IMG/VR virus record: IMGVR_UViG_3300046463_000164
Direction: 5' to 3' (one strand)
Source: a virus
Length of the DNA: 64,000 nt
A program made the position numbers and the translations under genes. Under the pieces are notes generated by a model. The model worked only from the letters and a program-made list of their open reading frames with translations, was not told the DNA's origin and searched no databases. This document shows positions 26,399 through 42,660 of the stretch, piece after piece. Each line of letters begins with the position of its first letter. Position 1 is the stretch's first letter.

Positions 26399-26472
26399 TG
26401 GCGGGCCGTCGAGGAATCGAACCCCAGTAACTGGATTTGGAGACCAGCGTAATACCACTATACGAACAACCC
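26399..26472 (-). tRNA. tRNA-Trp (CCA)
   Basis: Cloverleaf, anticodon loop CTCCAAA, encoded CCA end. Confidence 0.9.
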
Positions 26473-26478
26473 ATAATT

Positions 26479-26553
26479 TGGAGTCACATGCGGGAGTCGA
26501 ACCCGCCTTACCTGATAGAAAGTCAAGTGTCCTAACCAATAGACGAATGTGAC
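26479..26553 (-). tRNA. tRNA-Glu (TTC), U at position 37
   Basis: Stem CTTGA/TCAGG, loop CTTTCTA, CCA end. Confidence 0.85.
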
Positions 26554-26595
26554 ATAGACTGTTTCTTGTTTGGGTACAGTTAAACCCATAGTAAT

Positions 26596-26736
26596 CGGAG
26601 GGATGAGCGCGGAATCGAACCGGCCCAACTGGAGATCAACCCAGTACTCTACGGCGTCCATGTCAAATATATTGTTTCTCCGATGCGGCCAGCGCTAGCA
26701 GAAAAGGTTCCGCAATATAAGTGTGTAGATCATCCC
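26596..26736 (-). ncRNA. 141-nt tRNA-like structured RNA
   Basis: Acceptor-like stem GGGATGA/TCATCCC, GGTTCGATTCC T-loop, internal stems TCTAC/GTAGA, TATATTG/CAATATA and ACTGG/CCAGT. Confidence 0.65.
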
Positions 26737-26745
26737 ATTGAAACT

Positions 26746-26823
26746 TGGTGGACCGTGTCGGATTCAAACCGACCTGTATCCTACTTGCAAAGCAGGTGAC
26801 CACGTCTAGCAGTCCCACAGCCC
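26746..26823 (-). tRNA. tRNA-Ala (TGC)
   Basis: Loop TTTGCAA, G3:U70 pair, CCA end; T-loop TTTGAAT. Confidence 0.88.
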
Positions 26824-26841
26824 ATATTACTACTTAATCGT

Positions 26842-26917
26842 TGGCAGGGGTGGTAGGATTCGAACCTACGATAACCGGGTCAAAGCCGATTGCCTTGGGC
26901 CTCTAGGCGACACCCCA
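26842..26917 (-). tRNA. tRNA-Gln (TTG)
   Basis: Loop CTTTGAC, CCA end. Confidence 0.9.
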
Positions 26918-27002
26918 ACTGAAGGAAGTTGGCTGTTATCGGGAATCCACTTCCCAACACAATCCAGTTCTTAGTGGATACAGATAACTTCCTTTTAAAC
27001 TT

Positions 27003-27078
27003 TGGTGCCCGGTGTCTGATTCGAACAGACAACCCACTGCTTACAAGGCAGTCGCTCTACCGTTGGAGCTAACCGGGC
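27003..27078 (-). tRNA. tRNA-Thr (TGT)
   Basis: Stem ACTGC/GCAGT, loop CTTGTAA. Confidence 0.92.
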
Positions 27079-27150
27079 ATTAGAGAGTCCAAATTATTTA
27101 ACGTTGCTGTCCTCTACAAGCCCACAACGCTTCCCATCCCGATGAGAATT

Positions 27151-27237
27151 TGGTGCCAAGGGCCGGATTCGAACCGGCACGCCCTTTCGAACGGCGGATT
27201 TTGAATCCGCTGCATCTACCTATTACACCACCCTGGC
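27151..27237 (-). tRNA. tRNA-Leu (CAA)
   Basis: Loop TTCAAAA, long variable arm. Confidence 0.92.
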
Positions 27238-27242
27238 AATAC

Positions 27243-27327
27243 TGGTGGGCGAAGTGGGACTTGAACCCACACGTCTTTCGACACTGGCTTCTAAGACCAG
27301 CGCGGCTGCCAATTACGCCATTCGCCC
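27243..27327 (-). tRNA. tRNA-Leu (TAG)
   Basis: Loop CTTAGAA, long variable arm; matches frequent CTA codons in late genes. Confidence 0.92.
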
Positions 27328-27432
27328 AAATTAGTGGAGAACCAGTTAACTTCGGGGAAACTGGTGCCGCGATTATCTCCTCAAACGGTCTTCATTTACC
27401 GCCACTGGTGGCAAGGCAAATTCTTTTAAACT

Positions 27433-27519
27433 TGGTGGGTGCAGTAGGATTCGAACCTACAACGTTTCTTAAGTAACTGATTTACAGTCAGCGCCCTTCA
27501 GCCATTTGGATACACACCC
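27433..27519 (-). tRNA. tRNA-Tyr (GTA)
   Basis: Loop CTGTAAA, long variable arm. Confidence 0.92.
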
Positions 27520-27528
27520 ATAAAACTT

Positions 27529-27605
27529 TGGTCACCCTGGAAGGATTCGAACCCTCACCACCTGGTCCCAAACCAGGCATGCTAACCGTTAAACACTACA
27601 GGGAG
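27529..27605 (-). tRNA. tRNA-Pro (TGG)
   Basis: Stem CCTGG/CCAGG, loop TTTGGGA. Confidence 0.9.
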
Positions 27606-27707
27606 ATAGTATTACTACTTAGCACATTTCCAAAGCAGGTCGCAACTCCTACGTCGCTGGGTACTAAACGACCCAGTATCCTTGCTCGCTAGAAGATTTG
27701 GAAAACT

Positions 27708-27785
27708 TGGCTCTCATCATGGGAATCGAACCCAATCTTAAAACCCGTATACCAGGCTCGTGCTTACCATTTACACCATCAGAGA
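27708..27785 (-). tRNA. Atypical/pseudo tRNA (loop GGTATAC, nominal TAT)
   Basis: D arm, T arm and CCA present; acceptor stem only 4 bp; G at 33. Confidence 0.5.
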
Positions 27786-27795
27786 ATTGAAACTT

Positions 27796-27871
27796 TGGTC
27801 CGCAGGGCTAGAATCGAACTAGCGACACCAGGCTCTTCAGGCGAGTGCTCTACCAACTGAGCTACCTGCGG
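27796..27871 (-). tRNA. tRNA-Phe (GAA)
   Basis: Loop CTGAAGA; anticodon stem has two mismatches. Confidence 0.8.
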
Positions 27872-27876
27872 ATATT

Positions 27877-27948
27877 TGGTTGCGGGCATAGGAATCGAAC
27901 CCATTCCCTGCTGGCTTATGAGACCAGAGTCCCCCTTGGGAACCCGCA
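27877..27948 (-). tRNA. tRNA-Met (CAT), initiator-like acceptor, shortened D arm
   Basis: Loop CTCATAA; TGCGGGT/GCCCGCA-ACCA; only 72 nt. Confidence 0.75.
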
Positions 27949-28193
27949 ATTAAACTTTCAATATTTTTGATAACTAGCCGCAGGCCGCCACAACATCGGC
28001 CATCATTTTCTAGAAATTTTCGCGCGTCTAGGGTTGGGAGTTTAAATCCCATTAGGGTATTTGCGACTTGGGGCATACTTGGCGCCTCACCAGAGGACTC
28101 GAATCGAACGGTTCGCCTTTCTCATTCCATTAGATTATGCATAAATCTGCCGGAAGGATTTCAACCTTGCTCGTAGCTAATTACCAAAAATAT

Positions 28194-28272
28194 TGGCTCC
28201 GCATCTGGGTAACGATCCCAGCTAGTCATTGATTAACAGTCAAGTCCGTGCACCATGCTCGAATTCTGCGGA
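28194..28272 (-). tRNA. tRNA-Asn (GTT), non-canonical T-loop
   Basis: Loop CTGTTAA; T-loop ATCGTTA; G73 and CCA. Confidence 0.8.
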
Positions 28273-28413
28273 ACTGTCTTACTACATAAACATCTATTAT
28301 AACGGTTTACATACAAAAAGTAAAGCGTTATAATATGAATTAGTGCCGTACTTCACTATGTAACCCCTAGAACACACTTAGTGGGAAGCGGTATACAATC
28401 GGCTAGATTACTT

Positions 28414-28490
28414 AGGGGTGACTACTGGGACTTGAACCCAGACTTACCAGATTCACTGTCTGGTTCTCTACCAAATTGAGATATAGCCAC
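28414..28490 (-). tRNA. tRNA-His (GTG), A33, 3' end CCT
   Basis: GTGGCTA/TAGTCAC acceptor with C73; loop CAGTGAA. Confidence 0.78.
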
Positions 28491-28524
28491 ACCTAAGCAA
28501 TCGTAAAACTACTTAGGTCAAACT

Positions 28525-28776
28525 TTAGGTATCAGTCTTTGCTTTAAATGCAACACCAGCGGCCAAACCGCCTAGTCCTGCCATCATAGCACCGAATCCT
28601 GTACCAAATGTTACATAATCAAGAGTTCCTGTTTTATAGATAGAGACAATGCCTCCAGCAACAAAAGTAGGAATACCGGTGGTGGAAAGGGCCGCACCAG
28701 CTACTCTAAAAGGACAATAAGAAGTGCCGTTATTTTCAGTCAGGCAATCTTTGATCAGTTTTACTAACGATCCCAT
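28525..28776 (-). CDS. Small membrane protein (two hydrophobic, Gly-rich segments; possible holin-like)
   Basis: 83 aa with two predicted transmembrane stretches. Confidence 0.6.
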   Translation of the reverse strand: MGSLVKLIKDCLTENNGTSYCPFRVAGAALSTTGIPTFVAGGIVSIYKTGTLDYVTFGTGFGAMMAGLGGLAAGVAFKAKTDT

Positions 28777-28945
28777 TATTCATCCTCAAAAACCAAGCAT
28801 CATCGCATTGCGGATATTGCTTTAGAAAATCCGCATTAGCGCGTTGATATGTTGTCTCAATTACTGATGGATGCGCTCCCTCTTTGATTAGAGTCCCTAG
28901 AACCGAAGTGCTAGCAGCTACCATATCTTTGTAACGATACATCAC
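28736..28945 (-). CDS. Hypothetical protein
   Basis: 69 aa, AGGA RBS just after tRNA-Gly. Confidence 0.6.
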   Translation of the reverse strand: MMYRYKDMVAASTSVLGTLIKEGAHPSVIETTYQRANADFLKQYPQCDDAWFLRMNNGIVSKTDQRLPD

Positions 28946-28955
28946 ATTTCCTATT

Positions 28956-29029
28956 TGGAGCAGGTGACAGGATTCGAACCCGTCTCAACGGAGTGGAAGT
29001 CCGCGGCACAACCTCTATACCACACCTGC
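28956..29029 (-). tRNA. tRNA-Gly (TCC)
   Basis: Loop CTTCCAC, U73 and CCA. Confidence 0.92.
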
Positions 29030-29103
29030 ATAAATTTGCATCTACAAACCCTAGGCGGTCGTTATTAACCAATCTAGGTTGAATATTTGTAGATGACTAT
29101 ATT

Positions 29104-29178
29104 TGGCGGCTAGTAGGGGAATCGAACCCCTATGTTCGGATAGACAGTTCAACATAATAACCGTTATATGAACTAGCC
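29104..29178 (-). tRNA. tRNA-Asp (GTC), U at position 37
   Basis: Loop CTGTCTA, G73 and CCA. Confidence 0.85.
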
Positions 29179-29194
29179 ATTCTTTCTTACAAAA

Positions 29195-30010
29195 TTACTT
29201 AGTCGCTGCGCAAACAGCCTTTTTATCGGCGGTGAACTTTGCGATATCATCAGGCCACACCGACTTTGCGGCTACAGCCTTATTGCCAGGAACCGGGAAA
29301 GTAATTCCAGTATCCTTTTCAATCTTTGATTCCGGTACCAGATACGGCGTCATATCGTTTTTGATAGACAAAGCCTGATGAGGGAACTCAAAATCCATTT
29401 CTTCCTTAGTCGCTGTATCAATCACGATTTTATAGAAAGCGTGCGGCACAACAACCTTATTAGGACCAATTGTCTTGTCTTGCGGACCATAGATCGGACC
29501 AGTATAGACTTGCATCGTATGCTGACGATTAAACGCCCAACCACGCACATTTGTCTCTAGCTCTTCCCAGATACCCGCATTAAACGGATGGATCTGCGGT
29601 GCCATATTAGACAATAGAAAACTTTCCTTGTCCACATTCAAATCCCAAGCCATATCAGCATTATTAGCCAAATGGCCCTTATCATATCCGCTGTTAGTGT
29701 AGTCTTTCAACTCAGCGCGCTTTCCAACAGGAAGCAAAGGATCAGGAATGAAACTATCTTGACGCGGAACACAACCTTCTGAATGCTTCGGAGTCAACGT
29801 ATATGCAACCCAAACCGGAATCTTGGCAACATCGTCATGCTTCAAAACATATGCTTTATGGCACAACTGAGTACCGACTACCTTATCTGTAGGTAGACCC
29901 AACGGGGCTTCTACCGAAGCGATGGCGCAGGGCGTAGAGGCTGCATAAGATGCCGGAGCGCTCACTAGAGTCGATACGGCGATTACTAATGCTGCTAGAA
30001 ATTTCTTCAT
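29195..30010 (-). CDS. Secreted DNA/RNA non-specific endonuclease (NucA/EndoG family)
   Basis: Signal peptide MKKFLAALVIAVS..ASYA; PVWVAY, GYDKGHLA, SFLLSNMAPQ..FNAGIW..LE, VPHAFYK motifs. Confidence 0.9.
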   Translation of the reverse strand: MKKFLAALVIAVSTLVSAPASYAASTPCAIASVEAPLGLPTDKVVGTQLCHKAYVLKHDDVAKIPVWVAYTLTPKHSEGCVPRQDSFIPDPLLPVGKRAELKDYTNSGYDKGHLANNADMAWDLNVDKESFLLSNMAPQIHPFNAGIWEELETNVRGWAFNRQHTMQVYTGPIYGPQDKTIGPNKVVVPHAFYKIVIDTATKEEMDFEFPHQALSIKNDMTPYLVPESKIEKDTGITFPVPGNKAVAAKSVWPDDIAKFTADKKAVCAATK

Positions 30011-30033
30011 CTTTATCCAAAGTTTGTTAAAAT

Positions 30034-30178
30034 CTGGCGGGTTACTATCGTCCCGCAGGCACCTTCAAGAGCACCAGGTTAGGCTTCTCTTAAGCATATC
30101 GTATCCCCAAGCGTCCGAGGGGAATCAACTGTAACTTCAGTTTACATTATCACGGATTTCACAGCCCGTTTCCTGCCG
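30034..30178 (-). ncRNA. Candidate structured RNA upstream of the nuclease gene
   Basis: Stems ACGGG/TCCGT, TGTAA/TTACA, TCCCC/GGGGA, TTAAGAG/CTCTTGA, GCGGG/CCCGC followed by CA. Confidence 0.45.
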
Positions 30179-30187
30179 ATTGTACTC

Positions 30188-30571
30188 TTACGACCAATCC
30201 CACATATGGCTCTTGGGATTCTCAAAAACCATCGGCTCATAATTATCAGGGTCTTTCATATACTTGATCAACTCCTGCTTATTGTGAGACCGCAATTCTA
30301 TTTCACGATTTTGGCGAAACCAACGGCTGGGAGTCCAAGCATTCTTGGAGCGACTTTCGCCATGGATTCGTTTGTATTCGTGGTTTCTTTCTTGTTCAGA
30401 CATAGGACGAAAGAATTCTTCGGTTCTGCCCCAAATCCAACAATCACCTCCATCCTTTTGATAGTATTCATAATCGGAAGTGGTATAGAAACCGTTGGTC
30501 TTACGTCCCTTGTTATCCCAGCTATTACGTTGTGTATCTTCGAAATTTTTACGTCGAAAGGTTCTGCTCAT
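30188..30571 (-). CDS. Hypothetical basic/aromatic protein (MSRTFRRK type)
   Basis: 127 aa; its GGAG RBS lies inside a hairpin. Confidence 0.75.
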   Translation of the reverse strand: MSRTFRRKNFEDTQRNSWDNKGRKTNGFYTTSDYEYYQKDGGDCWIWGRTEEFFRPMSEQERNHEYKRIHGESRSKNAWTPSRWFRQNREIELRSHNKQELIKYMKDPDNYEPMVFENPKSHMWDWS

Positions 30572-30635
30572 TTAGTTTCTCCATATATGTTAACTTACAT
30601 ATATGAGAAGCCTTGTAATGATGAACAATAAACAT
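30549..30635 (-). CDS. Putative 28-aa leader peptide MFIVHHYKASHICKLTYMEKLNEQNLST
   Basis: Strong AGGAG RBS; runs through the hairpin that hides the RBS of the next gene. Confidence 0.4.
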   Translation of the reverse strand: MFIVHHYKASHICKLTYMEKLNEQNLST

Positions 30636-30647
30636 AAATCTCCTAAT

Positions 30648-30737
30648 TGGCGGAAGCAGTAGGATTCGAACCCACGGACCCAGTGAAGAGTCGCCAGTTT
30701 TCTAAACTGGTGCAATCGACCGCTCTGCCATGCTTCC
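30648..30737 (-). tRNA. tRNA-Ser (AGA)
   Basis: GGAAGCA/TGCTTCC, G73, long variable arm, stem CCAGT/ACTGG, loop TTAGAAA. Confidence 0.88.
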
Positions 30738-30744
30738 AGTAAAA

Positions 30745-30999
30745 CTACTTAGCCACTTGTCGTTGAACATGCTGATTTGCATGCGCTTTCGCTTCGTGCT
30801 CGCTATCAAAATGATAGTCGTTTTCCTTGCCGGTGTACTTACCGTCCACGTAATGCGTTACTCGGTACTTGTCGCCAGTAGGTTTGACCTTGGCTTCATG
30901 TTGAGCTCCACCGCGTCTTTGTGCCGTAGCAGTATGTACAAAACCGTGTTGATCAGGCTCAGTTTGTAAGCCTTCGTGTAAATCTGCAAACTTACCCAT
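30745..30999 (-). CDS. Putative capsid internal protein (IP-like)
   Basis: 84 aa, His-rich, N-terminus MGKFADLHE-G; lies within the tRNA cluster. Confidence 0.6.
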   Translation of the reverse strand: MGKFADLHEGLQTEPDQHGFVHTATAQRRGGAQHEAKVKPTGDKYRVTHYVDGKYTGKENDYHFDSEHEAKAHANQHVQRQVAK

Positions 31000-31013
31000 C
31001 TGAACTCCAAATT

Positions 31014-31089
31014 TGGTACCAGGGGCAGGATTCGAACCTGCGACAAACGGATTATCGGTCCGCTACTCTACCAACTGAGTTACCCTGGT
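31014..31089 (-). tRNA. tRNA-Ile (GAT), C33
   Basis: Stem GCGGA/TCCGT, loop CCGATAA. Confidence 0.88.
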
Positions 31090-31109
31090 ATTGTAAAATT
31101 ACTTAGTAC

Positions 31110-31184
31110 TGGTCCCGCGTCAAGGAATCGAACCTCATTCTGACGGTGAACATACCGCCCATCCTACCAATAAACGAACGCGGG
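31110..31184 (-). tRNA. Atypical tRNA with 8-nt anticodon loop (undetermined)
   Basis: Perfect CCCGCGT/ACGCGGG acceptor, T arm, CCA; loop TATGTTCA. Confidence 0.65.
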
Positions 31185-31191
31185 ATAAAAC

Positions 31192-31303
31192 TGGTGGTAG
31201 TGGAGGAATCGAACCTCAAAATCCCGAATGCAGTATCTCAATCACTGACGCCTGTTTAGTGATCGTCGGGTTCCCAATACTGTAGGCACCTTGCCTAACT
31301 ACC
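31192..31303 (-). ncRNA. 112-nt tRNA-like RNA with expanded anticodon domain
   Basis: GGTAGT/ACTACC acceptor with ACCA, T arm, AGGCA/TGCCT D-like hairpin, CAGTAT/ATACTG stem enclosing an insert. Confidence 0.65.
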
Positions 31304-31311
31304 GTGAAACT

Positions 31312-31440
31312 TGGCCGGAACTGATGGAATTGAACCATCAATTTGTCTTTCACTACTCAGATCGTATCGCACTCTGGCGCCGTTTTAATTTCATTACTTC
31401 CCAATACACATGGGATTCCTTACCACTTGGATAAGTTCCG
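31312..31440 (-). ncRNA. 129-nt tRNA-like RNA with ~55-nt variable region
   Basis: CGGAACT/AGTTCCG acceptor with GCCA, D arm, TCCCA/TGGGA arm (loop TGTGTAT), GATGG-TTCAATT-CCATC T arm. Confidence 0.7.
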
Positions 31441-31446
31441 TAAACT

Positions 31447-31522
31447 TGGTCGAGATAGGTGGAATCGAACCACCGACACGCGGAATATGAATCCGATGCT
31501 CTACCTACTGAGCTATATCTCG
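31447..31522 (-). tRNA. tRNA-Met or Ile2 (CAT)
   Basis: Loop TTCATAT, canonical cloverleaf. Confidence 0.85.
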
Positions 31523-31524
31523 TT

Positions 31525-31608
31525 TGGAGGGTAGAGAGGGATTTGAACCCACGAACCTTGCGGACCGGGTTTGCAATCCGGCGCTTTTGACCTCTCAGCC
31601 ATCTACCC
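31525..31608 (-). tRNA. tRNA-Cys (GCA) with extended variable arm
   Basis: Loop TTGCAAA, U73; variable hairpin CC-GCAA-GG. Confidence 0.85.
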
Positions 31609-31618
31609 CTCAGTAAAA

Positions 31619-31807
31619 CTACTTAGTTGCTGCTTGCTCGCGTGACTTATCGTTCGGGCCGCGCTTCTTTGCGGTATACAAACGCTTCGCTGGATCCTTG
31701 CCATGAGCAGGCTTAGTTTGCTTCGGACCCTTTTCGCCGCGCTTATGCATTGCCGTGATTTGCTTTGCTTCAGCGCGCTTCTTAACATTCTTACTTTGAC
31801 GAGACAT
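31619..31807 (-). CDS. Small, very basic hypothetical protein
   Basis: 62 aa, K/R-rich, AGGT RBS. Confidence 0.65.
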   Translation of the reverse strand: MSRQSKNVKKRAEAKQITAMHKRGEKGPKQTKPAHGKDPAKRLYTAKKRGPNDKSREQAATK

Positions 31808-31842
31808 AATAACCTGTATTGTAGTTTAAACGAAAGCTTGTA

Positions 31843-32529
31843 TTACTCAAGCAACAAACACTTATACCGCTTATGATGATTGGCTCTGCCTTTGGCCACA
31901 TCACACATACGAGGAAAATTTAGACCTTGTTCCTTGCAGAACCTAGTCAAGTTTTCAACGATTACTTCATCGCCGTCTGGAGTTATTATCTTCCACAACT
32001 TTGATGCAGCTTTGACTATATTACTAATATTCCGCTTAGAATAATCCCTAATGGAATTTAGGTTAGATTTTCCAATCTTATCCTTATGCTCTTCCGACAA
32101 CTTCCTACCTGACATCGAGTCAGATATTTTCTTTTTGGTTTCTTCAGAATGACTCTTACCAAAAAGAGGATTGTTTTCGCCGGTTGCCGCCTCAGACAGT
32201 TTCTTTCGAGTTTCGGCTGAAGGATTCGAACAACCCTCTCCGCCGTCAGTTCCATTTGTTAACGGACCAAATCCCAAATCTCTGCGACCATATTCAGCAA
32301 TCCAGAAAACTTCCCACATCTCAGCATCATCTGCCGACAAATGCATATTCAAGAATTCTACAAGGATATACTTACCTTCACGTATAGCCTTTCTGATCTT
32401 CTTGTTTTTAAATGAATCTGGATTTCCGTCTTTGCCGCCAAGATGATCCCAAGCCCTTCTCTTAATACCCTTTCCTACATAAAATGGCTTGGGATCATCT
32501 TCAATTCTAAGTTGATATACATAAAACAT
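31843..32529 (-). CDS. GIY-YIG-type homing endonuclease with NUMOD3 repeats (start moved to ATG 32529)
   Basis: FYVYQLR..PFYVGKG..RAWDH, LTNGTDGGEG, HSEETKKKIS; AAGAGG RBS. Confidence 0.85.
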   Translation of the reverse strand: MFYVYQLRIEDDPKPFYVGKGIKRRAWDHLGGKDGNPDSFKNKKIRKAIREGKYILVEFLNMHLSADDAEMWEVFWIAEYGRRDLGFGPLTNGTDGGEGCSNPSAETRKKLSEAATGENNPLFGKSHSEETKKKISDSMSGRKLSEEHKDKIGKSNLNSIRDYSKRNISNIVKAASKLWKIITPDGDEVIVENLTRFCKEQGLNFPRMCDVAKGRANHHKRYKCLLLE

Positions 32530-32547
32530 ATTACCTCTTAAAATAAA

Positions 32548-32867
32548 GAACTCATGATACGCCAGCCTGGAGCACACCTCGGGGTCAATTCAATGATCAC
32601 CCACCACACTATACCCAGGATTTAAAAGATCGTTCAGACTTAATAACTTGAAAGTTGAGACTTAAACTTTAGAAATTTAATCTTTGAATCTTTAGCTTTA
32701 ATCGTTGAACTTTAAGAGTATTTGTATAGTCCCTTTCGGGCCACTATATTAATTGTCCTTGCGAGGATAAAGGTCGCAGTTCAATAGTCGATTTTGGCTC
32801 TCGCGGTTTAACGTCCAAGCGAGAAGGGACGCCGAAAGTTTTGAAGCGTTCAGCGTACCATGAGTTC
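32548..32867 (-). ncRNA. ~320-nt structured RNA with internal ~7-nt tandem repeats
   Basis: 16-bp terminal stem GAACTCATGGTACGCT/GGCGTATCATGAGTTC, internal hairpins, about 12 YYNAA(A)G-like units. Confidence 0.75.
32626..32715 (-). repeat. Degenerate 6-8-nt tandem repeat array (consensus near TTYAAAG)
   Basis: TTAAAG TTCAACG ATTAAAG CTAAAG ATTCAAAG ATTAAAT TTCTAAAG TTTAAG TCTCAAC TTTCAAG TTATTAAG TCTGAACG. Confidence 0.8.
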
Positions 32868-32886
32868 AGTTTTACTACAAAACTAC

Positions 32887-33519
32887 TTAGTCGGCCAGTT
32901 CAATCTCAGTCCGAGCATTAGACTCGCTCAGGACGAAATCAACTTCCGTCACAAAATCTTCATACTCACGACGAAGCACCGCGATTTGATCCACAATCTT
33001 CTTCGGGTCCAAAAGTTTGGCTTCTTGCTCGCCCTTAACTGCCTTCGCAATCAGGTCGTGCTGCTCTGCCGTAACTTTGCCCTTATCGTTACCGTATGCC
33101 GCCATCACACGCTTTTCAACGTCAGCTTCAACACGAGCATTCTGGTTGTTAGCCTGAATCGTAGCGCTGTTATACTGCGCTTGTAGCGTATTGATCAGAC
33201 GCTCGGTGTACTGGATCGAACTCTTACGTTCAATAGCTTCAGCAACCGTCATCGTCGCGCCGCTGATCGAAACTTGTGTTTTCGAGTTAGCAACGATAAT
33301 AGCTCGCTTAATGGCATCACGGCGCTTGATCAAATCCCCAACTTGCTGGTATGACGCTTGAATAGTCTTTTCCAGTTCATCCTTCGAAACCGCAGCATTC
33401 AGCGGGACTTCCTTGCTACCTCGCACAACAGCAACATAGGTTCCTTGAGCGATCGCATTTTGAATACGGCTGTCAAGGGTCTTCAGTTCAGCCAAACCGC
33501 GCGTTACAGTAATCTTCAT
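32887..33519 (-). CDS. All-helical coiled-coil protein of unknown function (DIP1984/septicolysin-like, by recall)
   Basis: ITVTRGLAELKTLDSRI, MTVAEAIERK, LLDP, VDFVLSESNARTEIE motifs; strong RBS; host-like codon use. Confidence 0.85.
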   Translation of the reverse strand: MKITVTRGLAELKTLDSRIQNAIAQGTYVAVVRGSKEVPLNAAVSKDELEKTIQASYQQVGDLIKRRDAIKRAIIVANSKTQVSISGATMTVAEAIERKSSIQYTERLINTLQAQYNSATIQANNQNARVEADVEKRVMAAYGNDKGKVTAEQHDLIAKAVKGEQEAKLLDPKKIVDQIAVLRREYEDFVTEVDFVLSESNARTEIELAD

Positions 33520-33571
33520 ATTTTCCTTTCTTCTCTTCAGTATAGGTACTTAAACCCGTTAAAATTCAGCG

Positions 33572-33958
33572 TTAAACGACTTTTTTGCCCATCATCTTTA
33601 CGATCTCAGGATCGGAAACGACAACGTAATTCGATTTATGCATTGGCATCACAGTGAACTTACGTTCAGCCGCTTCAGCCTCTCGGCGATTATACTCTTC
33701 AACCCCGATTTCTTCAATCATTTGTTTACGCAACTCATACTTCTTATCCGAAGCTTGAGGCACCTCAGCAGGGCGATTAGGCTTAACCAATCGATCTGCA
33801 TGCATTGCTAGAGCACCGCTAATACCAGCGGCTGGATTACGATTACCAAAAGACGGTCGCATAGGTTTCGTTACTAGAGGTTTGGAGTGGCGTTCCAGGA
33901 GTTTATCCCATTCAGACGCCAACTCACGTTGCTTCGCATTCGGCTTACGTTTCTTCAT
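33572..33958 (-). CDS. Hypothetical protein of T4-like phages
   Basis: Basic N-terminus and C-terminal MPMHKSNYVVV motif; start moved to ATG 33958. Confidence 0.7.
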   Translation of the reverse strand: MKKRKPNAKQRELASEWDKLLERHSKPLVTKPMRPSFGNRNPAAGISGALAMHADRLVKPNRPAEVPQASDKKYELRKQMIEEIGVEEYNRREAEAAERKFTVMPMHKSNYVVVSDPEIVKMMGKKVV

Positions 33959-33965
33959 ACAACCA

Positions 33966-34361
33966 TTAACGACGTTTGTTGAACCCACCAAAGTTCGAGC
34001 TAGTCTTCACCGGCTTAGACAGAGACAACTTAGGCGCTGGAGCAGCCACAGGCGCTACAACCGGGGCATGATTCACAGTGACGTTCTTTACAACCTTCTG
34101 CTGAATGATCGTCGTATGATTAACAGGCGCAGGTGAGGCGGCAGCGTTCCGGGTCGATAGCTTACCGGCCATAAAGCCAGCAGCCCCGCCTAGGAGCGCT
34201 CCGGTGAGAACGCCGCCATTATTACTCTGAGCAGGAGCAGAGACATAAACCGGCTGCTGAACTCCCGCATTCGGGTTTTGCGTCTGATACTGAGGATAGT
34301 TGTTATCGTGGCAAGCAGCCATAGAAACAGCCATCAGTGCAGCAAGGAAAATCTTCTTCAT
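33966..34361 (-). CDS. Lipoprotein with glycine-zipper segment
   Basis: Signal/lipobox MKKIFLAALMAVSMAA-C; GGVLTGALLGGAAGFMAG. Confidence 0.8.
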   Translation of the reverse strand: MKKIFLAALMAVSMAACHDNNYPQYQTQNPNAGVQQPVYVSAPAQSNNGGVLTGALLGGAAGFMAGKLSTRNAAASPAPVNHTTIIQQKVVKNVTVNHAPVVAPVAAPAPKLSLSKPVKTSSNFGGFNKRR

Positions 34362-34390
34362 TATTGTACCTTGAACTTTGATTGTTAAAC

Positions 34391-34603
34391 TTACGAAATT
34401 GCTCCCAACATATTCTTCAGTGCCAGCATTTCGCCGCGAATGTTATGTAGGTTTTTGATCGCGGAGGACTCGGACAGAACCCCATTGCTATGGTAGCAAG
34501 CCGCGATACAAGCTAGCACATCGCTGGCGGTCTTTTCGACCAGCTTCAGAACATCCAACGACAACGGCACATCAGCCCCGGTCTTAGTCAGATTGAGACT
34601 CAT
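34391..34603 (-). CDS. Hypothetical protein
   Basis: ATGA overlap with the upstream gene stop. Confidence 0.6.
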   Translation of the reverse strand: MSLNLTKTGADVPLSLDVLKLVEKTASDVLACIAACYHSNGVLSESSAIKNLHNIRGEMLALKNMLGAIS

Positions 34604-35055
34604 TCGTAGACGACATCCTGTGCAGAGGCAATACCACCAACCTTCAGCCACGCAAACTTCTTATCCTTGTCGATGCGAGCCAGACGCGAAGCTTCAGCCT
34701 TAGCCAAGTCTTCAGTGTTGTGAAGCGAAGGATTAGCGGACGCAGAAAACGCGCCAGTAGTCTTGTTCACAGAACCAACAATCCAAAAACCACGGCGAAT
34801 CGGACCAGTATTAATCATAGTAGGTTTAAACATTCCTTTAATTTTGTGCAGCTCAACAGAGCCACGAAGTTCACTCAAAGTAAAAAATCTACGATTGCCA
34901 TCATTATACAAAGTATAACCTTGCTCATGACGGTCATTCATTTCCAGACTACGATACGCCCCGTAGGGCGTCTTGTGATACGAAATAACCTTAAGAGTTT
35001 CCGATTCCAAATGATACTTCGGAAAACCCTTAATCGAGATCAACTCATTCATCAC
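34600..35055 (-). CDS. Hypothetical protein
   Basis: 151 aa, GAGGT RBS. Confidence 0.75.
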   Translation of the reverse strand: MMNELISIKGFPKYHLESETLKVISYHKTPYGAYRSLEMNDRHEQGYTLYNDGNRRFFTLSELRGSVELHKIKGMFKPTMINTGPIRRGFWIVGSVNKTTGAFSASANPSLHNTEDLAKAEASRLARIDKDKKFAWLKVGGIASAQDVVYE

Positions 35056-35198
35056 ACCTCATATTAGAAATATCCAGTTTGGACTTCGATTCCAAAACCT
35101 CCCGATTTAAATGCGGGCATACTTTCCATTTATACTACTGGATGTTACCGAGACAATCATATTCAATAATTTTGATTATCTCGACCTTTGCGCAATCA

Positions 35199-35275
35199 TG
35201 GCGCGCCGGAAAGGAATCGAACCCTCAACCTGGGGAGTAGAAATCCCCTGCTCTATCCAGTTGAGCTACCGGCGC
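35199..35275 (-). tRNA. tRNA-Arg (TCT)
   Basis: Stem GGGGA/TCCCC, loop TTTCTAC; directly behind an early promoter. Confidence 0.93.
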
Positions 35276-39004: not shown

Positions 39005-39445
39005 TTACAGTCCCAACATCATACGTCTAAAATCCAGCGCATTCTTGATATCGAATCCACGCTGACGCAATTGACCCTTGGCGTCCTCAAGGAACTTGAC
39101 AATACGTTCTGATTCCTTCACCAGTTCTCGCATTTCAGTGACCAGAGGGTCAACATTCATATAGTTTGGAATATCGGTCTTCAGAACCGCTTCAACCAAG
39201 GGTTCCTTGCGATAAACTTCAGATGTTTCCTTACCTGCGTAGTAGCGCTGACGCTTAAACTCAAGCTTGTGCAGTGCCTTCATCAGTTCCGAAAGCTGTC
39301 TTGACTTCTGGATATAGATACGGTTGAGCGAGGTAAAAATTTTGGGGCCTCTGATTGCTTCTCCATCGAGATCATCAGGGTTGATAGTAAGAAGGCGATC
39401 AACCTCCTTTTCAATATCTTCATACGACATTTCCTTGTAGTCCAT
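39005..39445 (-). CDS. uvsY: Recombination mediator UvsY
   Basis: RYYAGK, LKTDIPNYMNVDP, RGFDIKNALDFRR C-terminus. Confidence 0.88.
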   Translation of the reverse strand: MDYKEMSYEDIEKEVDRLLTINPDDLDGEAIRGPKIFTSLNRIYIQKSRQLSELMKALHKLEFKRQRYYAGKETSEVYRKEPLVEAVLKTDIPNYMNVDPLVTEMRELVKESERIVKFLEDAKGQLRQRGFDIKNALDFRRMMLGL

Positions 39446-40335
39446 TACGCCTTTTCCTTCAACTTAACTTCGGCAACAACTTGTTTGACCAGCTTCAACA
39501 GCTGCTCTTGTGAAATCTGATACTCAACTTTACCCGGATTGAGATACGCGCCGTATGCGCTGATCAAACGCTTGCCTTCAAACTTCTGAAGAATCAAAGC
39601 GTCAACTTCCTTTTCCAGGCGGTCGCGTTCATTCGCTTCTTTAGTTGCAAAAGAAAGCACGCCAGATTCGCGTTGAGAATTTAGACGAGACTTAACAAAC
39701 TCCAGACCTTTCGCAGTCAGCTTTGCGACATTCGATTCACGCTGTCCATTGTCATCAATAATGACCGGACGCGTGCCGTAGCCATTTTCCTTGAACCAAG
39801 AGTTCCAGTATAGAGCATTGTTACCCTTATACCGGCTTGCGTATCCCTCAGATACCAACCAATTAGACAGTTGCTGTACCGGCATACCCAGTTGCCCAGC
39901 TGCTTCCTTCACTCCGATGATATACGGAAACACAAGGGTGGTAGTTGCAATCTTGTTAGCAGGTTTAACCTTCGTCGGGGCAACAGTACCAGTATTCTTC
40001 TTGGCCCAATCTGGGACGTAAGATAGGTCGTGGTATTCCTTCGGCTTGTTCGATTCTTCAACGATAGTCTCAGCAACCTTCTTAGCCCAAGCAACGAACG
40101 GAATCAGACCAGGAGTCTTGCTTGCGTCCTTTGCCACTTTGTTGAGAGACTTGACAGTCAGGTAGATCACGCCGTCGATTACAGTTTCACGACGCTTGCC
40201 CTTAGTATGATACCGCAGAGAACTTGCTCGTGAGAATCCTGCTGCATATGCCGCGTCAAGAAGATTGAATACTACCTTGTCGTCTTGATATTTGATGCGA
40301 ATGTCATTACCATTGTAACTACGAATGTAATCCAT
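39445..40335 (-). CDS. Bro-N plus KilA-C/ANT antirepressor-like DNA-binding protein
   Basis: N-terminal YNGNDIRI..VFNLLDAAYAAGF; internal GVKEAAGQLG..LSNWL..GY, KLTAKGLEFV. Confidence 0.7.
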   Translation of the reverse strand: MDYIRSYNGNDIRIKYQDDKVVFNLLDAAYAAGFSRASSLRYHTKGKRRETVIDGVIYLTVKSLNKVAKDASKTPGLIPFVAWAKKVAETIVEESNKPKEYHDLSYVPDWAKKNTGTVAPTKVKPANKIATTTLVFPYIIGVKEAAGQLGMPVQQLSNWLVSEGYASRYKGNNALYWNSWFKENGYGTRPVIIDDNGQRESNVAKLTAKGLEFVKSRLNSQRESGVLSFATKEANERDRLEKEVDALILQKFEGKRLISAYGAYLNPGKVEYQISQEQLLKLVKQVVAEVKLKEKA

Positions 40336-40404: not shown

Positions 40405-40795
40405 TGAAACCCCGAATGGTTAGTTCGGGGTTTGTTTAAAGCTATCTCAATAGCAAATATGTATGATCAAATCTCTAATCTATTCTAATTCCTCTATACC
40501 CTCAGCATGGTGGACAGAAAGGATAAGATGGCCCATGCCCGATTAAGGGCACAGAACCACTATCCTAAGCAACTCATATACGGAGCCACATCAGGCCAAG
40601 GGTTAAGATATTTTCCCTTAGTAGTCACACCCTCTTGCGCTGTCATAATATCATAACAGTCGAGCCCCCAGGGTCACACCGGACAAAACAAAGTCCTAGA
40701 TTGCGGGGATGGCTTCGCTCGAAACACAGTAAGCCGTAAAACAACCTGCGCGCTGCCGTCTGCATACCGACCACGCAAGTCTACTAATTTAGACT
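40405..40795 (-). ncRNA. Candidate ~390-nt structured non-coding RNA
   Basis: Own promoter (40800-40828) and terminator (40408-40433), no ORF of 60 aa or more, many nested stems. Confidence 0.55.
40408..40433. terminator. Terminator hairpin
   Basis: AAACCCCGAA-TGGTTAG-TTCGGGGTTT. Confidence 0.8.
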
Positions 40796-40799
40796 ACAG

Positions 40800-40828
40800 A
40801 TTATACGGCTATTTCACATAGAAGTCTA
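40800..40828 (-). promoter_or_regulatory. Sigma70-type promoter TAGACT-N17-TATAAT
   Basis: Near-consensus boxes with 17-bp spacing, pointing into ORF-free DNA. Confidence 0.7.
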
Positions 40829-40848: not shown

Positions 40849-41115
40849 ATGAAAGGAAACGAAATGAAACGTGATACCCGCAAGGCCATGAATTACCTGA
40901 AGCAACGAGTGGTGGACTTTTTCTTCGTCTACTTCGATCAGAAAACTTCCAGGAAGGTTTTCAACCGCCCTGAAATCGCTATCCCGATGATCAAAACGGC
41001 GATGTTGGATGGAAGTCCTAATAAGACTCGCCTAACCATCTACGCATCTGCCCTACGCGATGCTGTTGAGTACGAACGCCTACGCCTAGCCGACTCAGCA
41101 GAAACGGCAGGATGA
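40849..41115 (+). CDS. Hypothetical protein
   Basis: 88 aa, after CTAAATT motif at 40833. Confidence 0.7.
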   Translation: MKGNEMKRDTRKAMNYLKQRVVDFFFVYFDQKTSRKVFNRPEIAIPMIKTAMLDGSPNKTRLTIYASALRDAVEYERLRLADSAETAG

Positions 41116-41154: not shown

Positions 41155-42660
41155 ATGACGGATATAGTTATAGAACGCGCTAATGCGTCCTTCATACGCG
41201 TGTACACTGATGATAACGGTATTCGTCAGGACATTGAAGATCACTTCTCGTATCAAGAACCCGGCTTCGTGAAAAATAAATGGACGAAGTGGAACGGACA
41301 AGTTCGCCTATTTAAGCGGCGCGGAAATACCCTACCATATGGCTGTCTACATATGCTGTTGGAACTAGCCAAGACAAACGGCTGGAGCTTCGAACTAGAC
41401 ACGGCTTTCAAGAACGATATCTCAGCGGTTAAGCGAGAGGAAATTGAAGACTGGGTCAAGACTCTGGATATACATACAGGCGGTATGCCTATTGATCCGT
41501 ATGACTATCAGATGGATGCTTTATATCTCGGAGTCCGGTTTGGTCGTTACGTTGCACTAGCGGCTACGTCTGCGGGTAAGTCTCTGATTGCCTATTTGTT
41601 GACTCGCTACTATGAAATGTTGAGCAATGAAGACGGTAAGAAGATTCTGATTATCGTCCCTTCTCAGATGTTGGTGGATCAGCTATATTCTGACTTCCAA
41701 GATTACTCTAGCGCCAACGGATGGAAGGTTCATGATATGTGTCACAAGATCATGGAAGGTAGACCGAAGAACGCAAATAAGATGATCTACATTTCGACAT
41801 GGCAATCTATCTATGAAGAAGATGAGGAATACTTCAAGCAGTTTGGTCGCGTCATCAACGATGAGGTTCACTTAGCCAGCGGCAAGTCGATCACAGCTAT
41901 CATGAATAACTGCACCAACGCTTATCAGCGTGTAGGTATGACCGGCACGCTTAAGGCTGAAAAGATTCACCCTATCTTGGTCATGAGCCTGTTTGGTCCT
42001 ATCAAGCGAGTAGTCACAACTAAGCAGTTGATTGATGCCGGGCGTGCCACGGAAGTCTATATCAAGATGTTCCAGTTGAACTACGATAAGACGGAATCTG
42101 AGTATGTCGCTGAATGCAGCTATCAAAAAGAGCTTGAGTTCATCATAGGACACAATCAGAGAAATAAGATGTTGGCTAGTCTTATGTCAAGCGTTAAGGG
42201 TAATACCCTTGTTATGTTTGATCGGCTAGAGCACATCGAGAATGTGAAAGCGTTTCTCGATAAGATTCCTCACGGCAAGAAGGTCTATGTCATCACCGGA
42301 GCGGTGGACCGTGACGAGCGAAACGACATTAAGGCTATTGCTGAGCAGGAAGATGGCGTAATCGTGCTAGGCACGCGCGGATGCGTTTCGACCGGGCTAT
42401 CTATTAAGAAGCTAAGAAACCTCATCTTCGCTCATCCTAGTAAGTCCATCATTACGATCCTTCAGGCAGTTGGTCGTATTATCCGACTCCATGATGAGAA
42501 GGGTAGCGCCCACGTCTATGATCCTATTGACAACTTCTCCTTCGACGGTAAGCCTAACTATGCACTAAAGCACGCATTGGAACGTTGGCAAATCTATAAG
42601 GATGCTGAGATGCCGATTGAGTTCAAATCAATAGCTATGAAGCCTCACGTAGAAGCATAA
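41155..42660 (+). CDS. uvsW: UvsW SF2 DNA/RNA helicase
   Basis: WNGQVRLF, PYDYQ, ATSAGKS, STWQS, DEVH, GMTGT, QAVGR. Confidence 0.95.
   Translation: MTDIVIERANASFIRVYTDDNGIRQDIEDHFSYQEPGFVKNKWTKWNGQVRLFKRRGNTLPYGCLHMLLELAKTNGWSFELDTAFKNDISAVKREEIEDWVKTLDIHTGGMPIDPYDYQMDALYLGVRFGRYVALAATSAGKSLIAYLLTRYYEMLSNEDGKKILIIVPSQMLVDQLYSDFQDYSSANGWKVHDMCHKIMEGRPKNANKMIYISTWQSIYEEDEEYFKQFGRVINDEVHLASGKSITAIMNNCTNAYQRVGMTGTLKAEKIHPILVMSLFGPIKRVVTTKQLIDAGRATEVYIKMFQLNYDKTESEYVAECSYQKELEFIIGHNQRNKMLASLMSSVKGNTLVMFDRLEHIENVKAFLDKIPHGKKVYVITGAVDRDERNDIKAIAEQEDGVIVLGTRGCVSTGLSIKKLRNLIFAHPSKSIITILQAVGRIIRLHDEKGSAHVYDPIDNFSFDGKPNYALKHALERWQIYKDAEMPIEFKSIAMKPHVEA

Follow-up and report, generated by a model that had tools for sequence, protein, structure and literature searches.

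Time and again, large RNAs of bacteria and phages whose folds are intricate and conserved have proved to have unexpected roles. ROOL and GOLLD form RNA cages, and HEARO became the guide RNA of IscB. At the T4 origin ori(uvsY), a promoter-driven R-loop primes replication and is removed by UvsW. The nearest catalogued relative of the phage RNA described here is RF02932, which is entered in Rfam as Betaproteobacteria-1, a candidate sRNA that represents the first 120 nt of one branch. A literature search returned no paper on Betaproteobacteria-1 as an RNA, on RF02932, or on a matching phage RNA. ROOL and GOLLD are reported to occur in phages close to tRNAs (PMC5737381), in a paper whose main text does not contain the name Betaproteobacteria-1.

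The stretch of DNA analysed here (the window) comprises 64,000 nt of the IMG/VR virus record IMGVR_UViG_3300046463_000164, and is part of a T4-like phage whose genes around the RNA were named by PHROG searches. The RNA was placed by the earlier note between uvsY and uvsW, and this setting is right: a UvsY-like mediator is encoded at 39005-39445 (minus) and a UvsW-type helicase at 41155-42660 (plus). Two reading frames are to be added, namely a 296-aa ORF (39445-40335, minus) between the RNA and the uvsY-like gene, and an 88-aa ORF (40849-41115, plus) which precedes the helicase gene. The 296-aa ORF has weak similarity to antirepressors of the ANT/KilAC type, matching phrog_63 with an E-value of 1.6e-5 and Pfam ANT with 19.7 bits, which is under the Pfam cut-off. 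Near the uvsY-uvsW region PHROG also named genes for a baseplate hub and for an RNA ligase. The best named matches to the UvsW protein come from Ralstonia phage RSP15 (50.5%) and Delftia phage PhiW-14 (44%), and because these are its closest named relatives, the host of the phage is probably a betaproteobacterium. RSP15 has in the same place, upstream of a small ORF and uvsW, an unannotated gap of some 530 bp (L001:3155-3686, equivalent to NC_030948.1 48448-48979), which has no similarity to the window RNA and no match in Rfam. Elsewhere in the window ARAGORN located a cluster of 19 tRNA genes (26399-35275, minus); for the one at 31110-31184 it returned no anticodon ('tRNA-???').

The ends of the RNA were placed from consensus promoter and terminator signals. 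A promoter scan found the sigma-70-type sequence TAGACT-N17-TATAAT at 40828-40800 (minus), and the -10 box stands at the same position and distance in four out of four relatives that carry the RNA (L002, L003, L147 and L148). A terminator scan found an intrinsic terminator hairpin with a U tract at 40433-40407 (minus). The two signals enclose about 387 nt without a conserved ORF, the longest frame within the gap being no more than 49 aa, so that the original description of a promoter firing into ORF-free DNA which ends at a terminator is borne out. Beyond the terminator the next gene has a predicted promoter of its own, TTTACT-N17-TATAAT, at 40393-40365 (minus).

Folded as a single sequence, the RNA reaches -128.9 kcal/mol (z = -3.26), a value not equalled by any of 100 shuffled sequences. 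A homologous stretch occupies the same place in the four uncultivated relatives just named, whose UvsW proteins are 77-83% identical. The window RNA is 83% identical to that of L003 and 71% identical to the core of that of L002; the part conserved in all four is the first 300 nt or so of the transcript. RNAalifold, applied to the five sequences, gave 83 pairs, 31 of them changed on both sides. For the final structure model three pseudoknots were placed by hand and the pairs were then counted in the five sequences: the model has 74 pairs, with 96.2% of cells paired and 27 of the 74 pairs changed on both sides. It was matched by none of 500 shuffles, and when the 3' partners were slid by 1-3 columns the pairing fell to 34-46%. 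The core comprises six hairpins and three pseudoknots; the helix substitutions within this phage group are compensatory, and the G-U pairs make the structure specific to the minus strand. Together with the dedicated promoter and terminator, the folding energy and the two-sided changes uphold the proposal of an independent structured RNA. Reading frames of 28-49 aa do occur on both strands of the gap, as a small protein-coding gene would require, but they are broken by gaps of 1-2 nt in the alignment of the relatives; such a gene, or a structure arising by chance, is hard to reconcile with compensatory changes and a strand fixed by G-U pairs, and can for practical purposes be dismissed.

The elements of the fold, all on the minus strand, are as follows. 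Hairpin P1 (40743-40781) has an outer stem that covaries and an inner stem, UGGUCG/CGGC-AG-CG, that is invariant and contains an AG bulge; this is the signature of the wider family described below. Two 5' strands lie in the loop ACUGUGUUUCGAGCG of hairpin P2 (GGCUU/AAGCC, 40711-40735), namely that of pseudoknot A (GUG, 40725-40727) and that of pseudoknot B (UCGAGC, 40717-40722). The P3 domain (40660-40707) has an outer stem CCC/GGG and an inner stem GGAC/GUCC, after which come ACCCU (40670-40674), the 5' strand of pseudoknot C, and then GCUCGA (40660-40665), the 3' strand of pseudoknot B. Hairpin P4 (CUGUUAUGA-UAU-UAUGACAG, or CTGTTATGA/TATGACAG in the DNA; 40640-40659), five of whose eight pairs change on both sides, is followed at 40622-40639 by an invariant joiner CGCAAGAG and then by AGGGU and a second GUGUGAC; the AGGGU at 40629-40633 is the 3' strand of pseudoknot C. 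Hairpin P5 (AAGGG/CCCTT in the DNA, 40596-40621) shows two-sided changes in seven of its nine pairs, and leads to an invariant GGCUCCG with a small hairpin GGCUC/GAGUU (40571-40587). The long hairpin P6 (AGGATA..GTGGTTC..GTGCCC in the DNA, 40521-40565) has the invariant segments GGUUC and UGGGCCA. The conserved core ends at 40496-40513 with CCACCA and then GCUGAGGG; the CAC of CCACCA (40510-40512) is the 3' strand of pseudoknot A.

The three pseudoknots are documented to different degrees by the phage sequences. All six pairs of pseudoknot B (UCGAGC/GCUCGA) are formed in every sequence (100% paired), one of them occurring in three forms, GC, UA and AU. Pseudoknot C is ACCCU/AGGGU in the window, ACUCU/AGAGU in L002 and AUCCU/AGGAU in L148. 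For pseudoknot A three invariant pairs are possible in the phages, one of which is broken in L002. The duplicated GGTGTGAC already remarked upon in the earlier note is present, its copies flanking the strands of the covarying pseudoknot ACCCU/AGGGU. As GGUGUGAC, the duplication lies at 40673-40680 and 40624-40631 (minus), where it flanks both strands of pseudoknot C; pairing there would leave a symmetric GUG/GUG internal loop, and in the relatives the element is kept as GGURURAY and RRURURAC.

Six pairings had been proposed for this RNA from the single sequence. Five of them, P2 (GGCTT/AAGCC), GGAC/GTCC, P4, P5 and P6, are supported by covariation. The sixth, a long-range pairing of CTTGCG with CGCAAG, is not supported: P1 is formed by CTTGCG and a nearby CGCAGG, and L002 changes the 5' side of P1 to CCTAGG, with a local CCTAGG partner, while GCGCAAGAG, an invariant joiner, stays as it is. 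The purine-skewed, AT-rich 3' tail is likewise present in the window (about 40495-40434, minus, 30% G+C) and is not conserved: it is absent in L002, where the RNA leads directly into the next ORF with no terminator between them, and in L148 its place between the RNA core and the terminator is taken by an 87-aa ORF with no family match (L148:2520-2783, minus).

The sole Rfam signal of note was an end-to-end match to RF02932 at 40663-40781, scoring 23.1 bits against a curated gathering cut-off of 49.4; L002 gave the same match in the same relative place at 22.2 bits. Because a score of 23 bits lies below the cut-off of 49, the phage RNA is to be regarded as a relative, and not as a curated member, of RF02932. 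Checking Rfam with Infernal and homologues for covariation, as had been advised, thus gave a sub-threshold kinship and a fold that covaries in four relatives. Otherwise, Rfam searched at E-values up to 10 yielded chance-level matches to sRNAs and snoRNAs only, and no known ribozyme family. ARAGORN, which found the 19 tRNAs elsewhere in the window, found no tRNA, tmRNA or tRNA-like domain at the RNA locus. The 3' CUCCACCA is like the acceptor end of tRNA-Ala or tmRNA, but no T arm adjoins it, and a tRNA or tmRNA identity was rejected.

RF02932 and the phage RNA share a 5' hairpin with the invariant UGGUCGG ... ACGGCAGC and a second hairpin with a CUGUG loop (ACUGUG in the phage RNA), and both are stand-alone units with variable neighbours. 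They differ in P3, in that the third hairpin of RF02932, GGUGGCGAAG..AGCGCC, is absent from the phage RNA and CCCGCAAUCUAGGAC...GUCCGG is found there instead. The phage RNA also has additional P4 and P5 hairpins, which give it a length of about 300 nt against about 235 nt, and it is carried by a lytic T4-like phage. A pattern made from the shared 5' hairpin was scanned across 185,579 genomes. Apart from some matches within coding sequence, taken as chance, the scan recovered two groups of RNA. The first comprises true members of RF02932 (104.6 and 80.9 bits), from the genera Paraburkholderia, Caballeronia, Cupriavidus and Burkholderia; the second comprises about 20 RNAs of approximately 290-300 nt which match no Rfam family and have the same motif order. 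This second group is drawn from Acetobacteraceae, other Alphaproteobacteria, a Rhizobiaceae genome, Flavobacteriaceae and other Bacteroidota. A further 30 or so were found with this pattern in IMG/VR viral contigs.

Throughout the family the 5' hairpin UGGUCGG/ACGGCAGCG is invariant (the first-hairpin motif GGuCGG...ACggCAGC occurs in 17/17 sequences), and the order of elements is P1, P2, three pseudoknots, P4, an AAG.AG joiner, P5, GGCUCCG, a long P6 and YCACC(A). The uncatalogued RNAs of about 290 nt (L220-L322 and L325-L354), which are found by integrases, tRNA genes and phage modules, follow the same order as the phage RNA. They differ from it in the internal loops of P3 and P6, in having AAGAG as the joiner where the phage RNA has AAG-N-AGC, and in a member-specific repeat after GGCUCCG and CACCA which is nearly lost in the T4-like group. 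Pseudoknot A in bacteria joins GUG(GG) of the P2 loop to a 3' (CU)CAC, with all five pairs in 12/12 members; in the phages it is putative. By manual reading, pseudoknot B has its equivalent in the bacterial members as GGCGUC/GACGCC, and pseudoknot C as GGUUCG/CGAACC, GCUCG/CGAGC, GGUGG/CCACC, GACUG/CAGUC or GUCAG/CUGAC; on this reading, pseudoknot C covaries in the phage and the bacterial group alike.

The 5' and 3' parts of the RNA contribute differently to this kinship. A covariance model of the 5' domain (R1), for which RNAalifold gave 12 pairs, was trained on 23 family members that do not belong to the T4-like group. It recognises the window RNA (38.8 bits, E 1e-9) and the four relatives, and nothing else in the window; there is some circularity in this result, since the hairpin pattern that is the main basis of the match had also served to collect the training sequences. 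In nhmmer profiles, similarity between the groups is seen over the 5' 60 nt only. With MAFFT and RNAalifold the middle parts of the phage and bacterial RNAs could not be aligned, and the 3' domain alone gave no consensus; the equivalence of P3-P6 between the groups is accordingly a manual reading. That the 3' half is akin to that of the bacterial RNAs is suggested by ordered motifs and a matching architecture: AAG(N)AG, GGCUCCR and YCACC, which were picked after inspection of both groups, are ordered and spaced in the phage RNA as expected, and 7 of 50,000 shuffles reach that. Those RNAs of Paraburkholderia, Caballeronia and Burkholderia that are true members of RF02932 extend past the 120-nt model to GGCUCCG and CUCCACCA, and since they continue beyond it, the Rfam entry covers the 5' part of one branch only. 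Searching 50,697 named phage records by blastn with the window RNA and two other family members gave no match, and a metagenome scan gave only a contig that was already in the comparison. Judged by these sequence comparisons, the phage RNA is long and diverged for a member of a superfamily whose RNAs measure about 240-300 nt; in Proteobacteria and Bacteroidota, this superfamily is spread over lytic phages, prophages and integrase-borne islands. The suggestion of a new class of ncRNA is in this respect half right: the wider family is barely catalogued, and the 5' third of one branch was already present as RF02932.

Most members of the family carry a segment of 8-12 nt twice in the same orientation: it follows GGCUCC(G) and appears again behind YCACC(A), at a distance of 50-100 nt downstream, so that the two copies flank P6; examples are L330:1978-2121, L327:898-1036, L283 and L221. 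Identity between the copies averages 7.2/13 within a member against 3.6/13 between members, a value reached in none of 10,000 permutations, and close relatives alter both copies together (GGUGCAU in L283 against GGGGCAU in L221, L226 and L276). The twin repeat could represent an alternative pairing, twin processing sites or template-jump repeats. It is weak across the T4-like group and marginal in the window RNA, because only UGAG is shared there. These observations are relevant to the idea that the RNA is a ribozyme or self-processing RNA, in which the knotted core would be catalytic and the repeats after GGCUCC(G) and YCACC(A) would be twin sites of processing or ligation on either side of P6. 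In its favour are the three pseudoknots, the large number of unpaired nucleotides that do not vary, and the concerted change of both repeat copies. The reduction of the repeat to UGAG in the window RNA and the failure of any known ribozyme family to match, even at the most permissive threshold used, speak against it, and we consider it unlikely.

The surroundings of the RNA vary greatly over the family, and no constant protein partner was found. Several bacterial loci have the order tRNA, integrase, small ORFs and RNA, and near-identical copies in Paraburkholderia have unrelated neighbours. In viral contigs the RNA comes after primase (with helicase upstream in L335), after Erf and exonuclease, or after NinG, and also before terminase, Mom or vWA-like genes. 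A complete relative of 170,684 bp (G005) has a second, diverged copy 89 kb from the first (L360:1470-1830, at 153.6 kb of the G005 contig, plus), with its own terminator and a TAGACT-N17-TATAAT promoter; in this copy ACUAUGGG replaces ACUGUG, pseudoknot C is ACUCA/UGAGU, and the strand is opposite to that of neighbour genes of early type without assigned function. More distant complete relatives with the same uvsW region, namely RSP15 and three complete phages of about 165 kb (UvsW 44-46%), have no copy of the RNA anywhere in the genome. In an alphaproteobacterial island (L238:5000-6320) only the 5' 130 nt or so of the RNA are present, which may represent a shorter form, or else a truncated copy; on one side there is an integrase accompanied by an int-alpA RNA, and on the other a DUF7146 primase-like gene, after which there is a Fic gene.

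This distribution bears on whether the RNA might be a cis-acting leader or switch, whose fold would sense a factor and whose alternative repeat pairings would set read-through into the 296-aa Ant-like ORF and uvsY. Most members do have an ORF on the same strand about 40-250 nt downstream, and two identical segments vying for one partner would be the usual logic of an attenuator. A leader or cis role is possible in some relatives, because in L002 the RNA meets the next ORF with no terminator in between and in L148 an ORF precedes the terminator. The window RNA, on the other hand, is isolated from the next gene by a strong terminator and a separate promoter. The downstream genes are moreover unrelated between members (Mom, vWA-like, small-terminase-like or without assigned function), and convergent genes face the RNAs of L353, L331, L245, L219 and L263. 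As a general account of the RNA, a cis-acting leader is thus decidedly unlikely.

A second alternative, put forward in the earlier note, is that the RNA primes replication, either through an R-loop of the kind known from T4 ori(uvsY), formed by the transcript in the AT-rich tail, or through a fold like that of ColE1 RNA II, with UvsW removing the product. The gap occupies the map position of ori(uvsY) between genes that PHROG identifies as uvsY and uvsW, its promoter fires into non-coding DNA, and a purine-rich tail of low G+C content lies downstream of the fold. Elsewhere in the family, members are found directly after primase or helicase genes (L060 and L335), by the primase-like gene of L238 and by a replication initiator (L263), and the two copies in G005 could be two origins. 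The tail is, however, the sole candidate for an unwinding element, and is the very part that is missing from L002 and given over to an ORF in L148. What is conserved at the locus is a folded, triple-pseudoknotted RNA core and not the flanking DNA, whereas the T4 origin is distinguished by a DNA unwinding element and an R-loop primer needs no such core. The promoter is also of sigma-70 type and not of MotA type, inspection of its sequence revealing no TGCTT-type MotA box upstream of the -10 box or near -30. Nor is the family tied to the uvsY-uvsW locus or to origins: other members precede terminase or Mom genes or adjoin integrases, the second G005 copy runs opposite to genes without assigned function, and RSP15 and the three complete relatives of about 165 kb do without the RNA altogether. 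The GC-skew check that had been suggested shows a sign change near 41100, which coincides with the switch in gene direction. A role as origin primer is accordingly very unlikely.

Besides the sigma-70-type promoter, a second possible signal precedes the RNA. The sequence CTAAATT (CTAAGTA in the relatives) lies at 40786-40792 (minus), 5-11 nt before P1, and is a candidate phage-specific promoter. CTAAGTA is found 9-20 nt upstream of six tRNA units in the window, those of tRNA-Pro, His, Asp, Ser, Ile and Cys (27616-27622, 28510-28516, 29196-29202, 30746-30752, 31100-31106 and 31620-31626, respectively, all minus), where it is usually followed by (g/a)ttttac. CTAAATA is frequent elsewhere on the plus strand (27 CTAARTA sites against 17.3 expected). 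The CTAAGTA-type motif is probably a phage-specific promoter, and because CTAAGTA or CTAAATT precedes both the tRNA units and the RNA, the structured RNA may be made from the tRNA-type phage signal in addition to its sigma-70-type promoter. Such a link to tRNA genes, together with a complex fold, carriage by phages and prophages, predicted self-expression from its own promoter and the want of a partner gene, recalls ROOL and GOLLD, and raises the question of whether this is likewise an 'ornate' RNA which assembles with itself into multimers without any protein partner. The window RNA is half the size of ROOL or GOLLD or less, and has no sequence similarity to either and no match to their models, so that self-assembly of this kind seems very unlikely.

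The explanation that best accommodates these observations, to which we attach a probability of roughly 60%, is that 40793-40407 (minus) is the gene for a free, trans-acting, pseudoknotted ncRNA of the superfamily related to RF02932, with a role directed at the host. The RNA would be transcribed from the sigma-70-type promoter, and perhaps also from the CTAAGTA-type motif, and would end at the intrinsic terminator; its first 300 nt or so are predicted to fold compactly, the six hairpins being locked by the three pseudoknots. The folded RNA would then act in trans on a component common to all the host bacteria, as a scaffold, decoy or catalyst directed at the host and not as a cis element or replication primer. 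Action in trans is proposed because the sequences of the helices do not vary from Bacteroidota to Betaproteobacteria, although the neighbours change, and the trans-acting RNA that the earlier note had offered as its second option is probably correct on these grounds of distribution and conservation, which are also what points to the host.

It is tempting to go further, and to suppose that the family is a programmable or catalytic RNA of mobile DNA, in which the twice-written 8-12 nt would be a guide, a processing site or a strand-exchange switch, or else that the CUCCACCA-like 3' end acts as a tRNA or tmRNA decoy for host enzymes or defence toxins. We offer this as a tentative suggestion with a small chance of being right; if it is true, T4-like phages would keep multiple diverged copies in order to cover different targets.

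For the uvsY-uvsW gap itself, the tempting reading as an RNA-primed origin loses support. The family is found in several phyla and on mobile DNA of many kinds, and yet it has been catalogued only as a 120-nt 'sRNA' motif. Large lytic phages keep the RNA in more than one copy, and with their defined promoters, lytic cycle and multiple copies, the T4-like members would provide a tractable setting in which to find its role.
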